Shown here in pieces: positions 2,823 through 54,347 of a stretch of 64,000 bases of DNA; position 1 is the stretch's first letter; each line of letters starts with the position of its first letter. The notes beneath the pieces were generated by a model that saw only the letters and a program-made list of their open reading frames with translations, was not told the DNA's origin and made no database searches. Location: the NCBI GenBank assembly GCA_964016885.1, contig OZ024740.1, forward strand, positions 390,476,001-390,540,000. Direction: 5' to 3'. A program made the position numbers and the translations under genes. This DNA comes from Eledone cirrhosa (Eukaryota).

Positions 2823-3325
2823 CGGAAAAAATGAAACGAAATTTCATTTCCCACTCTTAGTACGGCTGTTACTTAAATATAAGTATTTACACGTACATAC
2901 ATATATGTATACAGACGTACAGTAGTATGTATATATATATACATACATGCACACATATATATATGTACGTATGGATTCACCGAACATTTATTATAATGCT
3001 CGGTGTGTTTGTAAACAAACATCCCGTATTAAGCCGTAGTGTCCAGCAACCATCGTTGCTCGTTTGTTCAACACTGACAAAGGAACATACTTGTACATAC
3101 TTATATTTAAGTAACAGCCGTACTAAGAGTGGGAAATGAAATTTCGTTTCATTTTTTCCGTTTATCGTTTTCGGTGCACCCGGCCGATTAACCCACTCGA
3201 TATGCAAATTGGGCTACTCAGCCGTTAATATGCATAAGGTAAGTATATACGTTTAACAATCTGGCAGGAAGGAATACGTTGCTGACGATAGCTAATAAGC
3301 TTGAAACTAGTACAGCGTTCCTTTG
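2823..3325 (+). mobile_element. HHR-bearing non-coding element, family A, copy 1 (inverted segment plus direct segment)
   Basis: Homologous to 53705-54347; 2823-3086 is an inverted part of the monomer; cut at 3325 by a Tx1/L1 fragment. Confidence 0.8.
3271..3321 (+). ncRNA. Minimal type I hammerhead ribozyme (family A)
   Basis: ACGTTG-CTGACGA(3282-3288)-T-AGCT-AATA-AGCT-T-GAAA-CTAG-TA^CAGCGT; palindromic stem III ACUAGU; GUA site at 3310-3312. Confidence 0.88.
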
Positions 3326-5076
3326 GTCAAGGTGAACGGCTACCTCTCGGCGTCAAGGTGAACGTCTACCTCTCGGAGCCGTTCCATATCACGCGATCCA
3401 TCCGACAGGGATGCCCTCTCTCCTCCCTTCTGTACGTACTGACTCTCGAGCCACTACTGCGGAAGTTGGAGCTATTGCAGGGCATCCCTCTGGAACCGGG
3501 ACTGCGGAAGTCGGCACCTTACTGAAGGAATACGAAAGGTTCACAGGAGCGAAGCTGAACCGGGACAAGTCCGTCAGTTTGCAACTCGGATCGTGGAGAG
3601 GCAAACCGATGCCTTCCGATGCCGTCGTCGGACGCTGGACGGAGGGACCGGTGAAGCTGATCGGGGTCTGGTTTGGTTCGAACCTCCAGGTGGAGAAGAA
3701 TTGGAACGAGGTGACGGCCAAGGTGTTTGCGCTCACCCAGAAGTGGGCCGAGTGCAAACTATCCTTGAAAGGTCGAGCGGAGGTGGCGAACACTTTTATA
3801 GCGTCCGTCATCTACTACCGCTTGACCGTCGTGCCTTGTCCAGCCAAAACGCTCACCAAAATTGTGCGCGCGCTCTTCCAATTCCTTTGGAAGAAGCGGA
3901 CTCCTTTGGTGAGAAGATCCATCTGCTGCAAAACACCCTTCCAACGGAGGGCTGGGGATGCCGTGGCTGACGATTCGCAAACACGTGCTCAGGCTGCGGC
4001 ACCTCCACGTATTCCTCACCGGACAACCGCTGTGGGCCCCGTTCATGAGGCGAGCCTTCCCACGACTCGTCTCGCTGACCGAGATGCAGTCCTGGGTCAA
4101 GCAAAGATCGAGGAAAATGGGCGACTGGCACATCGAATGTGCTTAGGCGCTCACAGCCCTCTGTCAGGCGGACTCGGCGATCAGTGGAGACTTCACTTCG
4201 TCATTCTATAGAGGGTTGGTCCGCAGCAAGTGCGACGACGCGCTCGGAGAAACTCTAGGCGTAGAAGAAGACGAACTGGCCAGTCTGTTCGGTAGGACCT
4301 TCCGCCCGGGACCGATGGACAACTTCCCAAAGTCCCTGGCCTGGTAGTGCTACCGAGGAGCTCTACCAGTTCGAGACAAGCTCTACAGACACGGGCGCCC
4401 GGGCAAGGACCCTTCGAAAAAGATCTATCCGAGATGCGTGCGAGACGAAGAAACCGTCGCGCACACATTCATACACTGCCCGGGCGTTACCGACCTGTGG
4501 GGCTATGTAGAACGGCTATTGTCGCGGGTGGGACCAATCCGGTTGACCATCGAGTCTATTGTCATGATCAAACCGCCACCCTCCTTCAAAAACGAAGGAA
4601 AGGCGGTTTTCCTTTGTGTGATAGCTATGGCGAAAGAGGTTGTATGGTGGACGAGGTTAAAAGGGCTGAGGTCAAACACCTTTCTCCCCGGCCAACAACT
4701 GATTCTTTTTTTCAAATACCACTTTGGAAGAAGAATCAGGATGGAGAGAGAGGTACTGTACCCCAGCAAGTTTTATGAAAGGTGGGTGAAAGTGGCGAGA
4801 ATGGCCCGAGTGAATGTGCCTTCTCTCTATATCAGCCTGTAGGTTGAGGAAAAAGGGGAAGAGAGGAAAGGGTTACTCACTCTTCGTACTCCTGGAGTTG
4901 AGGGTTGTACATTTTTTCGGGAGTATGTGTTACCCATATGTAATGTCTCCCCCTATTGGGGAAAATCGATTGTTTTTTACATTGCATTTGTGATAGTATT
5001 TTACACGTTTTTATTGTATGTAAACTTCCCCCTTTGTATTTGTCCCCTTCTTTTGTCCCCCTGTGGCTAATAAAGA

Positions 5077-20315: not shown

Positions 20316-20659
20316 ATATATAATGAATAAAGTAACCAGGATTAAATTACATTAAATTGTTTAATTGATTTACCATCGTTTCAATCAATCCAACAGGAAA
20401 ATACATGTCTACTGTATTGATTTCTTCAGAATCCATTAAACAACACAAATAACATAATTGTTTACCAACCACATATCCGAACATGTTAATTCCGAAAAAG
20501 TAAACAAATGTAAAATACAGTTGGGTAAACGTTAACATTTTATGGAAGAGTAAACACGCAATTAAACATGTATAAATATATATATAGCTGAATCAATTGA
20601 AGATGATTGCTTCTGACCAGCTGGCAGTCATGCTTCAGGACTCTGCCACCCCGACCATT

Positions 20660-20693
<34 letters not shown>

Positions 20694-20733
20694 GATATTA
20701 AACAAATGGAAACTATATTTATAAAACCATATT

Positions 20734-20800
20734 TATTTCATTATACATATTTCAGGGATACCATATTAAAAAATATGGCATGCCTTCGTCAGATAAAATA
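20734..20800 (-). ncRNA. Hammerhead ribozyme in the PLE pseudo-LTR
   Basis: Minus strand: TATTTTAT-CTGACGA-AGG-C-ATGCCATATT-TTTT-AATATGGTAT-C-CCT-GAAA-TATGTA-TA^ATGAAATA. Confidence 0.8.
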
Positions 20801-22423
20801 CAATATATAAACAGTTTTATAAATAATTTTGACGTACCATAATATAAGCGACCATTATATTAGGAAGCTGTCTGGATAGTGAATCTGTTTATATTTATTT
20901 AGTTATAGTGTTAAGCACAGTTAGAAAAAAGACGGAGAGAAAGAAGAAACGGAGGTAAAGAAGAAACAGGGAGAGATAGGGGAGAGAAGGGAAAGGAGAG
21001 AGAGAAAAAATATATAAATAGATAGGAATAAGAGAGCAATAGATAAATAAACACAAGAGAGAGGGAGTACTATATATAGAGAGAGGATAATAATTATTTA
21101 GTTATAGTGTTAAGCACAGTTAGAAAAAACGGAGAGAAAGAAAAAACAGAGATAAAGAAAAAATGGAGAGAGAGAGAGGGGGGAGGAAAAGAAAGAGAGA
21201 GAGAAAATATAGATAGATAGGAGGAAGTGAAAGAGAAACAAGAGAGAAATAAGAGAGGCAAACGAAAGCGACAGATACATAATAATTCATCATAGATAAA
21301 GATAAACTCAAGAGAGAGGAGAAAGTGCTATATAGAGAGAGAAGGAAATAGTTACATCTTTACGTCATGTCATATCAATTTGAATTATCAATTCATATGA
21401 AATGGATAATAAGAATGCAAATATCAATATTCATGAATGAGACATAGATATATAATATAAGAAAATAACATTGTTCAATAATGACCATATGTTTAGTTTA
21501 AAACTCTGAGGTCAATATACCAAAATCTGAGATAAAACCTTCAAAAAATTACCCTATTTATAAAAATACGGAAATATATATGTATATATACACGTATATG
21601 TACTTTCTGAAAAAAGAAAAAAGAGAAAATTATGTCTAACTCTAGTCAATAATATAGACATACACTTAACTTCACCTGATCAACTCTATAATTTCTTGTG
21701 TCAAAAAAAATTTCTTGTGTTATAAAAATTTCACTGTATATATACATAAAATATACGATTAATATTCATGCCCTCACATGTATGATTACCGTTCATGTAT
21801 TTAATATTATGCATATCTGTAACATATACAGAACCATACCTATACATATATATATATATGTATATATAAAATATCTGCGTGAGTTTTCCAGCATCTTTAC
21901 GCACATATACAGACACATGAACACATAAAATAAACTCTATAAACCTTCTATATCCATGTTAATACACATATGGCCTTTGTATAGAGATAATCAAATATCA
22001 ATATATCAGCACAGAAACATCAAAACATTAAAATACTTTCAACACACTATAGAGTATCTCAGGCCCAAAACAATATGCTTCATATATTTACTACAGAAAT
22101 CTATCCTTCCTATATTTCAAACAATATATTGCAAAGTTAATTAGAAGCTATCAGAGTCAAAAAACAAATAAAAACAAAAATTATTTACCAAAAATTATTC
22201 AAAAGATTTAGAAGACCCAGTGATTTTACGGATGGCGTTATATTTAGTATAAGAATTTATCTTGCGTAAAATTTATTTAATACATTGGGATCATATACAA
22301 TTTAGAGTAGTTTATTACATCTTTGTTTATATTTAGGAAGAAGGTTTAAAAAGAAAAAGGTGAAGGAATCAAATGATTTATCGACAGGTTTCATATATTA
22401 ACTAAATTTCTTAATTAATTATA

Positions 22424-23303
22424 CTACATTTTAAATTTATATTTATATTTAAACGTTGAGTTCAATCTATGTCTGCAGCAACTGAATAAATTGCTCCTTA
22501 AATTAAGGGAATTTTTGGACTTTAATATAAAGAATACCTCCTCCACACAGAGATCACATGTCTCTGATGAGGAATTAAAAGGAATCCCTTTTGAGACAAT
22601 ATTCCAAAACATCGAGTACTTAACATTATCTTGTTTAAGTTGCCAGAGTAGACTTGATAGCGAAGTTGAGGATTTTTTGTTTGGATCTGTGAAATAATTC
22701 TTATGATTATTGAAGCGAAGTTTAAATTCTGTCGAGGTGGAACCAACATAGTTGAAAGAATTTAAGTTAGTTTTAACATTACAATTGTATACTACATTTT
22801 TAACTAAGCAATTGTTATTTAACGGACAGTTAGATTTATTTCTACAGTTACAGTTATTTAATTGAATATTGTTTGGGTTATTATTGGTATTTTGGTTAGG
22901 TTTTAAATTCCTATTATTAATTCTGTTAATATTTTGTGCTAAATTTTTGGTGGACGAGTAAGTTAATTTTATAGTATGTCTATTAAAAATTGAATGATAT
23001 TTATGTGTTCTAGGGAATCGTTTGTCAAGAGCATTAAAGAATAGTTTAGCAATATGGGTTTTAATATTTAGTGAGAAAGGAGGGGGGGCAAACCATATTA
23101 TATTTCTAGTTCTATTTCTTTTTCGGCTTTTGGAATTATTGTAATGTTTTCTATTATAGTTGTTAATGTTGTTACCGTAATTAAAATTGTTATTATTTTG
23201 GTTAGTTTGCTTATTATTATCGATGTACTTAATTTTATCACTATATCCTGCTCTAGCTAACGCTTCATTGTAATACTGCGCTTTTTCATCAAAAATATAT
23301 ATG
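22424..23303 (-). CDS. PLE polyprotein C-terminus: end of RT thumb, Cys-rich linker and GIY-YIG endonuclease (open, 5'-truncated)
   Basis: RNIIWFAPPPFS, IFNRHTIKLTYS, CNCR..CPL..C, VVY..YVG..FKLRFNNH, CDLCVEE, LNLRS..CRH; the first ~23 aa of the tracked ORF come from the inverted pLTR. Confidence 0.9.
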
Positions 23304-23457
23304 TTTTTTAATATGGTATCCCTGAAATATGTATAATGAAATAAATATGGTTTTATAAATATAGTTTCCATTTGTTTAATATCGTATATCTACTCCCAAA
23401 ACTTGTCGAGTGCTTTATATCAGTTATAAAATATTTACTTGTTGTAAATAAAACCTT

Positions 23458-23549
<92 letters not shown>

Positions 23550-23574
23550 CGTATATACATATATATATATATAC

Positions 23575-23670
<96 letters not shown>

Positions 23671-23713
23671 GACGTAAATAAGAAAGTTATGAAAATTGAC
23701 TTACTAAAATTTC

Positions 23714-23792
23714 ACTCCAACTAATTAGTTTCTGTAAGGGGATAAATACAGTTATGTAATACCTGTACAGAAGCCTTACGTCATCAGGGAGT
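23714..23792 (-). ncRNA. Type I hammerhead ribozyme (family C, copy 1)
   Basis: ACTCC-CTGATGA-C-GTAAGG..CCTTAC-A-GAAA-CTAATTAG-TT^GGAGT; palindrome ACUAAUUAGU. Confidence 0.87.
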
Positions 23793-24244
23793 CTATTCTC
23801 AGCTAAGCCACCAGGCAATGCGGGGACACTGGAAGCTTATATAACAATAATTCAGTGGATAGAAAAAAATCGAAAAAATCGAGCGGGGCTAGATTCTAAG
23901 CACTGAAAAATTCGCTGCCTCCTTGGTCAAGTGGCAAATTCAAAAGAATTAATCACGTGACACTGAGGTTAACCAGCTTGGAGTGGGGGTGCTATTAAGA
24001 CAGAGCCTAGCCACTACTATCAGTCACAGTAGTAATTTGGCAAATTTTGCTCAACAAATAATTTGGAGGAGAATATGAAGAATTAATATATCTGCCGACA
24101 TATGTATACAGATGCATACCTACGCTAGCAGATATATATGTTTTGTCTTAGTAACTTTGTAGTTCTATGCAGGGGAATGCAGAACAATTATATGAAAGAC
24201 GTAAATAAGAAAGTTATGAAAATTGACTTACTTACTAAAATTTC

Positions 24245-24323
24245 ACTCCAACTAATTAGTTTCTGTAAGGGGATAAATATAGTTATGTAATACCTGTAGA
24301 GAAGCCTTACGTCATCAGTGAGT
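24245..24323 (-). ncRNA. Type I hammerhead ribozyme (family C, copy 2)
   Basis: Same as copy 1 with one stem I mismatch (ACTCA/GGAGT). Confidence 0.8.
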
Positions 24324-24723
24324 CTATTCTCAGCTAAGCCACCAGGCAATGCGGGGACACTGGAAGTTTATATAACAATAATTCAGTGGATGGAAAAAAG
24401 CGAAAAAATCGAGGGGGCTAGATTCTAAGCACTGAAAAATTCACTGCCTCCTTGGTCAAGTGGCAAATTCAAAAGAATTAATCACGTGACACTGAGGTTA
24501 ACCAGCTTGGAGTAGGGGTGCTATTAAGACAGAGCCTAGCCACTACTATCAGTCACATTCTTATTTACGTCTTTCATATAATTGTTCTGCATTCCCCTGC
24601 ATAGAACTACAAAGTTACTAAGACAAAACATATATATCTGCTAGCGTAGGTATACATCTGTATACATATGTCGGTAGATATATTAATTCTTTATATATAT
24701 ATATATATATAAATACATATATG

Positions 24724-24898
<175 letters not shown>

Positions 24899-24905
24899 GT
24901 ATATA

Positions 24906-24986
<81 letters not shown>

Positions 24987-35642: not shown

Positions 35643-38600
35643 ATACATTATCAACCCCATGGTCAGCTTAAATACAATATCAACCCCATGGTCAGCTTAA
35701 ATACAATATCAACCCCATGGTCAGCTTAAATACAATATCAACCCCATCGTCAGCTCAAATGCAATATCAACCCCATGGTCAGCTTAAATACAATATCAAC
35801 CCCATGGTCAGCTTAAATACAATATCAACCCCATGGTCAGCTTAAAGACAATATCAACCCCATCGTCAGCTCAAATGCAATATCAACCCCATCGTCAGCT
35901 TAAATACAATATCAACGCCATGGTCAGCTTAAATACAATATCAACCCCATCGTCAGCTTAAATACAATATCAACGCCATGGTCAGCTTAAATACAATATC
36001 AACCACATGGTCAGCTTAAATACAATATCAACGCCATGGTCAGCTTAAATACAATATCAACCCCATGGTCAGCTTAAATACAATATCAACCCCATCGTCA
36101 GCTTAAATACAATATCAACCCCATCGTCAGCTTAAATACATTATCAACCCCATGGTCAGCTTAAATACAATATCAACGCCATGGTCAGCTTAAATACATT
36201 ATCAACCCCATGGTCAGCTTAAATACAATATCAACCCCATGGTCAGCTTAAATACATTATCAACCCCATGGTCAGCTTAAATACATTATCAACCCCATCG
36301 TCAGCTTAAATACAATATCAACTCCATGGTCAGCTTAAATACAATATCAACGCCATGGTCAGCTTAAATACAATATCAACCCCATCGTCAGCTTAAATAC
36401 ATTATCAACCCCATGGTCAGCTTAAATACAATATCAACGCCATGGTCAGCTTAAATACATTATCAACCCCATGGTCAGCTTAAATACAATATCAACCCCA
36501 TCGTCAGCTTAAATACATTATCAACCCCATGGTCAGCTTAAATACAATATCAACCCCATCGTCATCTTAAATACAATATCAACGCCATGGTCAGCTTAAA
36601 TACAATATCAACGCCATGGTCAGCTTAAATACAATATCAACGCCATGGTCAGCTTAAATACATTATCAACCCCATGGTCAGCTTAAATACAATATCAACC
36701 CCATGGTCAGCTTAAATACATTATCAACCCCATGGTCAGCTTAAATACATTATCAACCCCATGGTCAGCTTAAATACAATATCAACGCCATGGTCAGCTT
36801 AAATACAATATCAACCCCATGGTCAACTTAAATACAATATCAACCCCATGGTCAGCTTAAATACAATATCAACCCCATGGTCAGCTTAAATACATTATCA
36901 ACCCCATGGTCAGCTTAAATACATTATCAACCCCATGGTCAGCTTAAATACAATATCAACCCCATGGTCAGCTTAAATACAATATCAACCCCATGGTCAG
37001 CTTAAATACATTATCAACCCCATGGTCAGTTTAAATACAATATCAACCCCATCGTCAGCTTAAATACAATATCAACCCCATGGTCAGCTTAAATACAATA
37101 TCAACCCCATGGTCAGCCTAAATACAATATCAACACCATGGTCAGCTTAAATACATTATCAACCCCATGGTCAGCTTAAATACAATATCAACCCCATGGT
37201 CAGCTTAAATACAATATCAACCCCATGGTCAGCTTAAATACAATATCAACCCCATGGTCAGCTTAAATACATTATCAACCCCATCGTCAGCTTAAATAGA
37301 TTATCAACCCCATGGTCAGCTTAAATACAATATCAACCCCATGGTCAGCTTAAATACATTATCAACCCCATCGTCAGCTTAAAACCATAATCACCCCCAT
37401 CATCAGCTTAAATACAATATCAACCCATGGTCAGCTTAAATACAATATCAACCCCATGGTCAGCTTAAATACAATATCAACCCCATGGTCAGCTTAAATA
37501 CATTATCAACCCCATGGTCAGCTTAAATACAATATCAACCCCATGGTCAGCTTAAATACAATATCAACGCCATGGTCAGCTTAAATACATTATCAACCCC
37601 ATCGTCAGCTTAAATACATTATCAACCCCATCGTCAGCTTAAATAGATTATCAACCCCATGGTCAGCTTAAATACAATATCAACCCCATGATCAGCTTAA
37701 ATACAATATCAACCCCATCGTCAGCTTAAATAGATTATCAACCCCATGGTCAGCTTAAATACAATATCAACGCCATGGTCAGCTTAAATACAATATCAAC
37801 CCCATGGTCAGCTTAAATACATTATCAACCCCATCGTCAGCTTAAATACATTATCAACCCCATCGTCAGCTTAAATAGATTATCAACCCCATGGTCAGCT
37901 TAAATACAATATCAACCCCATGGTCAGCTTAAATACAATATCAATCCCATCGTCAGCTTAAATAGATTATCAACCCCATGGTCAGCTTAAATACAATATC
38001 AACGCCATGGTCAGCTTAAATACAATATCAACCCCATGGTCAGCTTAAATACATTATCAACCCCATCGTCAGCTTAAATAGATTATCAACCCCATGGTCA
38101 GCTTAAATACAATATCAACCCCATGGTCAGCTTAAATACAATATCAACCCCATGGTCAGCTTAAATACATTATCAACCCCATGGTCAGCTTAAATACATT
38201 ATCAACCCCATCGTCAGCTTAAATACATTATCAACCCCATCGTCAGCTTAAATACATTATCAACCCCATCGTCAGCTTAAATACATTATCAACGCCATCG
38301 TCAGCTTAAATACATTATCAACCCCATGGTCAGCTTAAATACAATATCAACCCCATGGTCAGCTTAAATACAATATCAACCCCATGGTCAGCTTAAATAC
38401 AATATCAACCCCATCGTCAGCTTAAATACAATATCAACCCCATCGTCAGCTTAAATACATTATCAACCCCATGGTCAGCTTAAATACAATATCAACCCCA
38501 TCGTCAGCTTAAATACATTATCAACCCCATCGTCAGCTTAAAACCATAATCACCCCCATTATCAGCTTAAATACAATATCAACCCATGGTCAGCTTAAAT

Positions 38601-38890
38601 ACAATATCAACCCATGGTCAGCTTAAATATAATATCAACCCCATGGTCAGCTTAAATATAATATCAACCCCATGGTCAGCTTAAATACAATATCAACCCC
38701 ATGGTCAGCTTAAATACAATATCAACCCCATGGTCAGCTTAAATACATTACCAACCCCATGGTTAGCTTAAATACAATATCAACCCCATCGTCAGCTTAA
38801 ATACAATATCAACCCCATCGTCAGCTTAAAACCATAATCACCCCCATGGTCAGCTTAAATACAATATCAACCCCATCGTCAGCTTAAAAC
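35643..38890. repeat. 29-bp minisatellite, ~112 units (ATCAACCCCATGGTCAGCTTAAATACAAT)
   Basis: Unit starts at 35650, 35679 and onward; no spacers. Confidence 0.98.
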
Positions 38891-47532: not shown

Positions 47533-47582
47533 AATTGGCGTTATAAATCCTCATCTCTTTAGCTGTCGGCCTCTCAATATGC

Positions 47583-49172
47583 AAGTCCGTATACAAATGT
47601 AAACCATGTCCATATACAAATATAAATCAAGTCCATATACGAATGTAAACCATGTCCATATACAAATGTAAACCATGTCCATATAAAAATATAAACCAAG
47701 TCCATATACAAATGTAAACCATGTCCATATACAAATGTAAACCAAGTCCGTATACAAATGTAAACCAAGTCCATATACAAATATAAACAATGTCCATATA
47801 CAAATGTAAAGCATGTCCATATACAAATGTAAACCAAGTACATATACAAATGTAAACCATGTCCATGCACAAATGTATACCAAGTCCATATACAAATATA
47901 AACCATGTCCATACACAAATGTAAACCATGTCCATATACAAATGTAAACCAAGTCCATATACAAATGTAAACCAAGTCCATATACAAATGTAAACCAAGT
48001 CCATATACAAATGTAAACCAAGTCCATATACAAATGTAAACCATGTCCATATACAAATGTAAACCATGTCCATACACAAATGTAAACCATGTCCATATAC
48101 AAATATAAACCATGTCCATACACAAATGTAAACCAAGTCCATATACATATATAAACCAAGTCCATATACAAATGTAAACCATGTCCATATAAAAATGTAA
48201 ACCATGTCCATACACAAATGTAAACCATGTCCATATACAAATATAAACCAAGTCCATATACAAATGTAAACCATGTCCATATACAAATGTAAACCATGTC
48301 CATATAAAAATGTAAACCATGTCCATATACAAATGTAAACCATGTCTATAAACAAATGTAAACCAAGTCCGTATAGAAATGTAAACCAAGTCCATATACA
48401 AATATAAACCAAGTCCATATACAAATGTAAACCATGTCCATATACAAATGTAAACCAAGTACATATACAAATGTAAACCATATCCATACACAAATGTATA
48501 CCAAGTCCATATACAAATGTAAACCCTGTCCATACACAAATGTAAACCATGTCCATATACAAATGTAAACCAAGTCCGTATACAAATGTAAACCATGTCT
48601 ATATACAAATGTAAACCAAGTCCATATACAAATGTAAACCAAGTCCATATACAAATTTAAACCAAGTCCATATACAAATGTAAACCATGCCCATACACAA
48701 AAGTAAACCAAGTCCATATACAAATGTAAACCAAGTCCATATACAAATGTAAACCAAGTCCATATACAAATGTAAACCATGTCCATATACAAATGTAAAC
48801 CAAATACATATACAAATGTAAACCAAGTCCATATACAAACGTAAACCAAGTCCATATACAAATGTAAACCAAGTCCATATACAAATGTAAACCAAGTCCA
48901 TATACAAATGTAAACCAAATACATATACAAATGTAAACCAAGTCCATATACAAATGTAAACCAAGTCCATATACAAATGTAAACCAAGTCCATATACAAA
49001 TGTAAACCATGTCCATATACAAATGTAAACCAAGTCCGTATACAAATGTAAACCAAGTCCATATACAAATGTAAACCATGTCCATATACAAATGTAAACC
49101 AAGTCCATATACAAATGTAAACCATGTCCATATACAAATGTAAACTAAGTCCATATACAAATGTAAACCATG
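47583..49172. repeat. 23-bp minisatellite, ~69 units (ACCA(A/T)GTCCATATACAAATGTAA)
   Basis: Period 23, e.g. 47941 and 47964. Confidence 0.98.
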
Positions 49173-52000: not shown

Positions 52001-53055
52001 ATATTTAATACAATAACAGAGATAGCTTAAAGCTAAACTCTGACTGGTAACCATCTCACTCAACAAACATTAGGTTATATTTTAGTATAAACCCAATTTA
52101 AGTGTTTGGGGTGCTAACTATATGTATTTTGTGGAAAGCCAGTTGTATTATTTTATGAGATATAATTAGTTAAAATATATCTCTCTTTCCAAACAATTGT
52201 TTCATTATAAGTTTTCTACAAATTGGGAGAATTTTTCCAGTTTATGTAGAAGCCTAACATATATTCATGTAAGAATATATTTAGGTGGGTACTTATAAAT
52301 CATCAGTGGAAGCCCATTAAACTTTGATATAAGAAAAAATTCTTACCGCAGTTAAAAATCGGGTCTGCTAAGCTGCTCCCTCACGCATCGAATGACCGCC
52401 AAATTTGAAATTCCAGCAGTTTTTGACTGAGGAAGTATTATAGCGTCACTAAGCGGGAAGGGGAGACAACCACGATACACGAAAAGAGAAAAAATGATAT
52501 ACACGCGGGTTAATTAGTTTTTTCAAAAACATTATTAATCCAACGTGTTCAGAACTCAATTGAAATTAAAAAAATAAATGTATGCGTGTATAAATTACAC
52601 ACGCATATAGATATTTTCTTAGTCTAAAAACAGAAGTTGTACCAGAACAACAAACCGCATCTCATAACCGTAGTAAATACGGAAAGTTACGCTTTAAAGG
52701 GGCAAATGGGAATGTAAATCTCCGGCCGAATTAAGATAAAATATTAAACACACACGGGTTAATTAGTTATTTCAAAACTAATATCAATTCCACGTGTTAA
52801 GAACTCAATTAATTTTAAAAAATAAATGTATGCATGTAATTATTTACACAGGCATATATATATTTTCTTAGGCTAAAAACAGAGAAGTTACAACCAAAAA
52901 AACCACAATATCCCATAACAGTAATAAATACGGAAAGTCATATTTATAAGGTACCTGGAAATAAATACCTCTGGCCTATCAAGAGTAAAATATTTAATAC
53001 AATAACAGAGATAGCTTAAAGCTAAACTCTGACTGGTAACCATCTCACTCAACAA
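52001..53055 (-). mobile_element. Family B element, copy 2 (989-nt period including a ~250-nt internal duplication)
   Basis: 66-bp direct repeat at 52001 and 52990; (TA)n flanks. Confidence 0.85.
52187..52311 (-). ncRNA. Type I hammerhead ribozyme (family B, copy 2)
   Basis: TTCCA-CTGATGA-T-TTATAAGT..ACTTATAA-T-GAAA-CAATTG-TT^TGGAA. Confidence 0.85.
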
Positions 53056-53704: not shown

Positions 53705-54347
53705 GTATGTATGTATACTTACATGCGTAGATGTATACAGACATACAGTAGTATGTATATATATACATACATGCACACATATATATATGCACGTATCGGT
53801 TTACCGAACATTTATTATTATGCTCGGTTTGTTTGTAAACAAACAATCAGCCTTACATTTAAGTAACTACCGTACTAAGAGTGAGAAATGTAATTTCGTT
53901 TCATTCTATTCCATTTATCGTTTTCGGCGCGCCCGGCCGACTAAACTCACTCGATATGCAAATTAGGCTGCTCAGCCATTAATATGCATGAGGAAAGTAT
54001 ATACTTTCAGACGTTCAACCATCTCGCAGGAAGGTATACGATGCTGACGATAGCTAATAAGCTTGAAACTAGTACATCGTTCCTGTGTCAGTGTTGAACA
54101 AAAAGGTGACGTGGTTGCCTAAACTCAGTACGGCATAATTCGGGCTGATTGTTTGTTTACAAACAAACCGAATATTATAATAAATGTTCGGTAAACCGAT
54201 ACGTGCATATATATATGTGTGCATGTATATATACATACTACTGTACGTCTGTATACATATATGAATGTATGTATACATACATTCATATTTACATTTAAGT
54301 AACTGCCGTACTAAGAGTGAGAAATGAAATTTCGTTTCATTCTATTC
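53705..54347 (+). mobile_element. Family A element, copy 2 (436-nt monomer, ~59-nt direct repeat, 5' inverted segment)
   Basis: TTACATTTAAGTAAC occurs at 53853 and 54289; 53705-53851 is inverted relative to ~54143-54280. Confidence 0.85.
54033..54083 (+). ncRNA. Minimal type I hammerhead ribozyme (family A, copy 2)
   Basis: ACGATG-CTGACGA-T-AGCT-AATA-AGCT-T-GAAA-CTAG-TA^CATCGT. Confidence 0.9.

Follow-up and report, generated by a model that had tools for sequence, protein, structure and literature searches.

What kind of element leaves two hammerhead ribozymes in tandem beside a Penelope-like element (PLE), and how would it move? The question is raised by a locus of Eledone cirrhosa that lies within a 64,000-nt stretch of contig OZ024740.1 (positions 390,476,001 to 390,540,000, here called the window) and whose repeated DNA a first-pass annotation had named Family C. 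We put a probability of about 0.72 on the reading that Family C is a protein-free family inserted at (TA)n, in which a tandem transcript would be cut, circularized, and copied in trans by the reverse transcriptase (RT)/endonuclease of a Hydra-clade PLE, with the two kinds of insertion end, A and B, set at hairpins.

RESULTS

Family C contains paired type I hammerheads with a palindromic stem III

A scan of both strands recovered the two same-strand hammerheads of the first-pass annotation as a minus-strand type I pair (H17 at 24250 and 23719), and the 531-nt spacing proposed for them was exact. The palindromic 10-nt stem III, ACUAAUUAGU, was likewise present in both copies (Table 1). Each motif contains CUGAUGA, GAAA, and a GUU cut site, and the G10.1-C11.1 pair of stem II is located behind a C.A mismatch. 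All elements of a type I core (CUGANGA, GAAA, UH, and three helices) are present, with the mismatch at the base of stem II and the GUU site as nonideal features. Palindromic helix III, action as a dimer, and an extra base before position 10.1 are described for PLE hammerheads in PMC4209133. Direct copies of the unit in the window are approximately 96% identical, and a stem I mismatch noted earlier in the upstream hammerhead was found as an A.G at the first stem I pair, position 24319. Because the A in that column is the only A among 89 readings in 51 insertions, we regard it as a private mutation of the upstream hammerhead, which has a second private change at 24280.

Covariation was assessed by comparing two subfamilies, C1, which includes the window copy, and C2, the unit of which is approximately 557 nt long and 71.5% identical to that of C1. 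Between the two, the hammerhead core and the palindrome were kept, two stem II pairs were changed on both sides, and stem I differed by one G-C to G-U change. Rfam returned no gathering-level match in the 64-kb window and no hammerhead among 21 weak, microRNA-type matches at the Family C locus. We conclude that the hammerhead fold exceeds chance, because C2 keeps the core and palindrome with compensatory changes in stem II.

Table 1. Features of the Family C insertion and of the adjacent PLE (positions within the window)
Feature	Position	Strand	Remark
Whole Family C (C1) insertion	23667..24691	-	inverted arm, then a partial and a full unit, with a 56-nt end at A
Inverted arm, monomer positions about 36-172	24555..24691	+	ends at site B beside (TA)n
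5′-truncated first unit, monomer positions 222-531	24250..24557	-	
Upstream type I hammerhead	24245..24323	-	predicted cut after 24250; private A.G at 24319
Palindromic stem III, upstream copy	24251..24260	-	both-strand scan
531-nt monomer, cut to cut	23719..24249	-	37% GC
Internal site A (24194) and variant bulged hairpin behind it (24185-24162)	24162..24194	-	
Internal site B (24078) and canonical bulged hairpin behind it (24068-24050)	24050..24078	-	
Downstream type I hammerhead	23714..23792	-	stems intact; predicted cut after 23719
Palindromic stem III, downstream copy	23720..23729	-	both-strand scan
(TA)n tract past the inverted arm	24692..24984		
(TA)n tract between Family C and PLE	23461..23666		206 bp
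Separate 5′-truncated Hydra-clade PLE	20693..23460	-	A end at 20693
Inverted arm of the PLE (B end)	23305-23460		within PLE 20693..23460
PLE ORF remnant	about 23298-22424	-	
Hammerhead of the PLE	cut at 20742	-	within PLE 20693..23460

Two-ended insertions pair one A end with one B end

The segment 24555-24691, which the first reading had overlooked, is an inverted copy of part of the Family C unit, and the window insertion is a two-armed structure (Table 1). Its segments differ from the family majority by 0 to 6 substitutions each, and by sequence comparison the window copy is a slightly decayed product. The unit had 2646 candidate matches in the 3.0-Gb assembly, of which the best 40 were scored; the C1 sample comprised 90 collected loci, 51 of them distinct, and long, well-kept arms are over-sampled because all loci are top-scoring matches. 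Family C is dispersed on many chromosomes, flanked by (TA)n, and variably truncated at the 5′ end; it contains no ORF, and each tandem unit carries a type I hammerhead. Partial tandem, 5′ truncation, an inverted 5′ arm, and a tail at one end, all observed in Family C, are features of a nonautonomous PLE. Family C also occurs, without starts or ends, in four contig runs of unrecorded kind. Relatives with 77 to 78% identity were seen beside C1 copies (L013:2165-2664 and L026:7-956), and further Family C subfamilies probably exist, as judged from these sequences.

C1 copies end at site A (monomer position about 56-61) or at site B (about 172-177), located 3′ of the cut by about 56 and 172 nt, respectively, and (TA)n follows. 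One A end and one B end were found in 31/31 C1 insertions in which both TA-flanked ends lay at A or B, and the longer arm was at A in 17 and at B in 14. The other 20 of the 51 loci comprised 3 with atypical ends (L018, L077, and L107) and 17 lacking one readable end. Where arms meet, 29 of 41 junctions overlap by 1 to 10 nt. The same pairing was observed in all 14 resolved C2 arrays among 20 examined, counting one B end without TA and one A end taken from a separate reading; of the remainder, 3 ran on past the resolved sequence and 3 showed one arm. Moreover, all 5 autonomous Hydra copies with both ends visible, that of the window included, had one end of each kind. These one-of-each ends fit priming by a dimer on both strands.

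The pairing bears on whether Family C could instead be a satellite or foldback repeat, amplified at the DNA level by unequal exchange and gene conversion, in which the hammerhead is an inactive relic. Higher-order repetition inside C2 array L160 is in keeping with such an origin, and local amplification of PLE termini into minisatellites is discussed in 10.64898/2026.07.22.740005. Family C, however, is spread over many chromosomes, is variably truncated at the 5′ side, has fixed 3′ ends at (TA)n, and pairs A with B strictly, all of which are marks of target-primed insertion; DNA-level amplification is the explanation to which we give the least credence.

The adjacent PLE is an independent insertion

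The first-pass annotation placed Family C directly upstream of the PLE on the same strand. The relative position was correct, but a (TA)n tract of 206 bp and the inverted arm of the PLE itself (23305-23460) intervene. The frame 22424-23389 is the 3′ part of the PLE ORF, and its first ~28 codons derive from that inverted arm. Full copies of the same PLE encode approximately 740 amino acids with RWR (for RWK), DKT, CxCx5C, CxxC, and CxH motifs, the linker of the window copy reading CNCRNKSNC, and they have a C-terminal GIY-YIG-like region, a hammerhead, and insertion at (TA)n. Motifs matching the list in PMC8557442 assign the element to the Hydra clade. Its best named protein relative was from Argonauta hians (39%), and Pfam gave no informative match to the PLE proteins. 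Assignment to Naiad was rejected, as the endonuclease is C-terminal.

The tie between Family C and the PLE as one element, which the first-pass annotation had implied, was not supported. Family C was present within approximately 1.5 kb of the matched ORF part in 0/19 other copies of the PLE (L032 to L050), and the PLE carries a separate hammerhead of its own (cut at 20742); for these two reasons Family C is not its pseudo-LTR. The candidate assignment of Family C as a pseudo-LTR of the adjacent PLE was also rejected by the Family C sequence not being repeated at the 3′ end of the PLE or in other copies. Of the 51 C1 loci, 14 had the tail of the neighboring PLE within approximately 1.5 kb, and in 6 it stood on the far side of the 3′ TA tract, a proximity that fits a shared target. 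We conclude that the neighboring PLE inserted independently at a target of the same kind and that its tie to Family C is the shared target. A functional link, with a Hydra-clade enzyme as the mobilizer of Family C, is likely on sequence grounds by a route other than the structure of the adjacent element.

The genome has two Hydra families with intact ORFs. A blastn search at an E value of 1e-3 gave no match to C1 or C2 sequence in 155 loci representing the two local Hydra families and metagenome Hydra-like elements; the genome search for an autonomous carrier of Family C sequence, in which top candidates were scored, likewise found none. As none of the autonomous elements compared shares C1 or C2 sequence, we infer the partner enzyme only from the hairpin and the target. 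A broader form of the pseudo-LTR explanation makes Family C the pseudo-LTR or 3′ terminus of some autonomous PLE, either the neighbor or one that was missed, with a partial tandem of the usual PLE type. Family C does have the architecture of PLE insertions (PMC8557442), the tail of the neighbor recurs near C1 loci at the frequency given above, and a parent ORF could have escaped searches that scored the best candidates. Against this, the sequence after site B re-enters the Family C unit with no ORF, the neighbor has a hammerhead and an inverted arm of its own, and C1 sequence was found neither in the 19 other neighbor copies nor in the 155 Hydra and Hydra-like loci. We consider this explanation very unlikely.

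Two groups of autonomous copies were observed in addition. The second Hydra family (L200 to L219) is very young; its intact 821-codon frames are numerous and nearly identical, some of them arranged as tandem or inverted pairs, and it is a good source of helper protein. At L179 to L181 (G000:C7:78452867-78463066), three full Hydra ORFs stand in tandem with a 4011-bp period, as expected if an autonomous unit were copied by rolling circle.

A bulged hairpin lies behind sites A and B

A bulged hairpin is located approximately 10 nt 3′ of each site. The hairpin behind site B has a two-base 3′ bulge and is also found behind both ends of the neighboring Hydra family. Among clustered (TA)n junctions, the pattern occurred at 18 of 53, compared with a shuffle mean of 0.61 (maximum 3), where 6 of the 18 had helped define the pattern and the loci are a fetched set and not genome-wide; shifted offsets gave 0 to 2 junction matches. 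Among the matches listed, the second intact Hydra family had the hairpin at both ends. Some families that end at (TA)n (e.g., L156 and L106) have other downstream sequence in place of the bulged hairpin, perhaps the signal of another PLE clade.

Upstream of metagenome Hydra-like ORFs, 88 hairpins were found versus 4.6 in shuffled sequence and 5 on the other strand (count based on 65 of 78 loci with upstream DNA, 63 distinct regions). At least two hairpins, mostly 52 to 83 nt apart, were present in 33 regions, and none in 12. The first upper pair of the 88 was C-G in 58, U-A in 23, and U-G in 3, and the 3′ base of this pair lay outside the search pattern. A two-part profile trained on 67 metagenome hairpins alone ranked hairpin B first in both C1 and C2, with a score reached by 4 of 200 shuffles. 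Hairpin A was nonsignificant with the same profile, being equaled by 175 (C1) and 191 (C2) of 200 shuffles and ranking third and second, respectively. It is a divergent variant whose lower stem includes a U-A pair, and the case for it consists of its position, its conservation in C1 and C2, and the appearance of the variant at the junctions of two other families. Both hairpins are absent from insertion ends because they lie just 3′ of the start sites, as would be expected of a binding element.

Most arms read through the cut site

Among 82 arms ending at A or B, the cut site was crossed once in 40, twice in 28, and not at all in 14. Read-through was thus seen in 68 of the 82 arms, and none of the 82 stopped within 5 nt of the cut site. 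A cut linear monomer would give a cDNA of only 56 or 172 nt, and so the template must have been continuous across the cut site. Given that selection acts on the ribozyme, a religated circle is the simplest such template, with the uncut multimer as its main rival; the read-through favors the religated circular template.

Allele sharing was examined in both subfamilies. Within a locus, minor alleles of C1 were concordant in 33 of 237 comparisons inside the same arm and in 25 of 210 across arms, versus 1.7% between loci. The 204 discordant same-arm comparisons beside the 33 concordant ones are expected from age and are nondiagnostic, the test being weak because the family is old. Of the non-CpG C1 alleles seen in at least five loci, 15/22 were present in all passes. 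C2 occurs as arrays at dispersed positions, often in head-to-head orientation, and a single arm can contain as many as 15 cut sites. In L151, L155, L163, L164, and L166, locus-specific alleles were found in every unit of both arms, and C2 units diverged by 0.22% in the same arm and by 0.14% across the two arms, compared with 0.78% from one locus to another. Internal unit variants recur in arrays L157 (in both arms) and L160, a pattern that a single monomer circle does not explain and that suggests multimeric templates or later exchange.

The main rival retains the same element and enzyme, but a linear multimer, transcribed from a few master arrays and left uncut, would be the template; no circle would be needed, and the hammerhead would be vestigial or used in another step. 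Unprocessed RNA is the main in vitro substrate of a Poseidon PLE, the hammerhead of which is dispensable for insertion in vitro (PMC11167929); the unit variants repeated in L157 and L160 agree with a multimeric template, and long C2 arrays could serve as donors. A linear donor, however, yields only shorter daughters, and the longest A/B-ended C1 arm in the 51 loci was 982 nt, apart from a further C1 locus (L119) with three cut sites in one arm. Moreover, many C2 arrays are uniform for locus-specific alleles, and the hammerhead is conserved with compensatory changes. We regard the linear multimer as unlikely, though better placed than either the pseudo-LTR or the satellite, and continue to favor the religated circle.

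The window copy would supply monomer poorly

The first-pass annotation proposed that a minus-strand transcript of this locus could excise a 531-nt monomer. The cut-to-cut distance is indeed the repeat unit of the dispersed family, but the locus itself is a poor monomer source on account of the stem I mismatch and the inverted arm. The arm is complementary to monomer positions about 36-177 and, in a read-through transcript, would pair with the A-B region of the monomer; for this reason, the window copy is predicted to be probably not a donor.

The circular 531-nt monomer had a predicted fold with a z score of -5.8 relative to 60 shuffles, and within that fold the hammerhead was not in its active conformation, the adoption of which carries a local cost of 4 to 5 kcal/mol. 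Stem III was calculated at -9.0 kcal/mol as a duplex versus +2.1 kcal/mol as a hairpin. The double-hammerhead fold came to -213.5 kcal/mol versus -206.8 kcal/mol for two monomer folds (a difference of 6.7), both above the minimum of -223.6 kcal/mol. These energies make cleavage of Family C as a dimer plausible. A two-pair stem with a tetraloop is likened in PMC7229834 to efficiently cleaving invertebrate hammerheads, and eight of nine frog retrozyme dimers gave no cleavage in 10.64898/2026.07.22.740005. The private stem I mismatch of the window copy is a built-in test of monomer versus dimer cleavage.

Other hammerheads and repeats occur in the window

A different hammerhead family with a short CUAG stem III is present at 3285-3320 and 54047-54082 (both plus strand; cuts at 3312 and 54074), the former just before a 291-codon open frame (3336-4211) with no Pfam match. 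Another family, with a long stem II and a GUU site, has minus-strand cuts at 52192 and 11784; its palindromes, CAAUUG and CGAUCG, show a compensatory difference, and a relative stands in an approximately 1-kb tandem in L052. Two further candidate hammerhead-like folds have minus-strand cuts at 20371 and 26321. Minisatellites occupy 35643-38888 (29 bp, 112 copies) and 47582-49170 (23 bp, 69 copies).

DISCUSSION

By its sequence features, Family C is a retrozyme, a known kind of element. Retrozyme circles are described in coral, mussel, and axolotl, with tandem cDNA proposed to arise from them (PMC7229834), and animal retrozymes are argued to derive from PLEs (10.64898/2026.07.22.740005). Like the metazoan non-LTR retrozymes of both sources, Family C lacks an ORF, carries a type I hammerhead in every unit of its tandems, has a GC content under 45%, dimeric to multimeric arrays, and a palindromic helix III, and coexists with PLEs; for those retrozymes a circle and mobilization by PLEs have already been proposed. 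The unit of Family C (531 or 557 nt) compares with 170 to 400 nt in PMC7229834 and 51 to 972 nt in 10.64898/2026.07.22.740005. Fixed A/B ends, inverted multimeric arms, and a shared hairpin do not appear to be described for those retrozymes, and among the loci searched no sequence of a PLE pseudo-LTR matched Family C.

We propose that a tandem Family C transcript would be cut at two hammerheads and the excised monomer ligated into a circle, which a Hydra-clade Penelope-like RT/endonuclease would copy into DNA in trans. The bulged hairpins would bind the enzyme and set the start sites of copying, and an enzyme dimer would nick both (TA)n strands and prime once at A and once at B. The two rolling cDNAs would then truncate and join head to head via short overlaps, giving a partial tandem and an inverted arm. 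A wider proposition, which we hold at even odds, is that the RNAs of the Hydra clade share a hairpin pair, located behind the hammerhead, that docks an RT dimer and that retrozyme circles, keeping the hammerhead and the pair, are copied by two-armed rolling-circle reverse transcription. Each hairpin would dock one RT/endonuclease subunit approximately 10 nt from its start site, and every insertion would be built from one A-primed and one B-primed cDNA.

Known PLEs share parts of this arrangement. The Hydra clade, as part of the PLEs for which PMC8557442 reports inverted arms and a tail frequently confined to one end, has the target, architecture, and hairpin in common with Family C, which has no protein; the word "hairpin" is absent from the main text of that source. 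Local Hydra units are approximately 3.9 kb, versus "generally under 3 kb" for the clade, and the tail is approximately 116 nt in C1 and 90 nt in the local autonomous families, versus 30 to 40 bp (PMC8557442). In the Poseidon element PAc of Anolis (PMC11167929), too, the tail is set by two internal RT start sites, both strands of AT-rich DNA are nicked, the protein is predicted to form a dimer, and the binding region extends 3′ of the start sites. PAc starts, however, lie in one AC-rich stem-loop inside the ORF, whereas Family C has two separate bulged hairpins behind its sites (PMC11167929 for PAc). In the genome data, moreover, every resolved Family C insertion used one start of each kind, a point of difference from PAc. 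In the twin priming of L1, two primers on opposite strands produce an inverted 5′ part joined by microhomology. Family C differs from twin priming in having two fixed sites of priming and arms that share template sequence, each of which can be multimeric.

A search of mostly open-access texts returned no paper on a twin hairpin, on a strict A/B rule, or on an octopod retrozyme. Three features appear to be new, namely the A/B rule, the multimers with two arms, and the clade-wide hairpin. The mechanism of tandem, inverted, and tailed PLE insertion is named as open in PMC8557442, and the enzyme of animal retrozymes is still a proposal. Family C gives a 531-nt protein-free substrate with two families of intact candidate helper ORFs in the same genome, a precise end rule (one A and one B), and an RNA element of 15 to 30 nt to mutate, and the three apparently new features make the mechanism of PLE insertion directly testable. 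If the hairpin pair is the packaging and start signal, it would be a minimal cargo tag for a microsatellite-targeting retrotransposon. If true, the hairpin-pair model would explain together the tail of PLEs, their inverted ends, and the helper of animal retrozymes.
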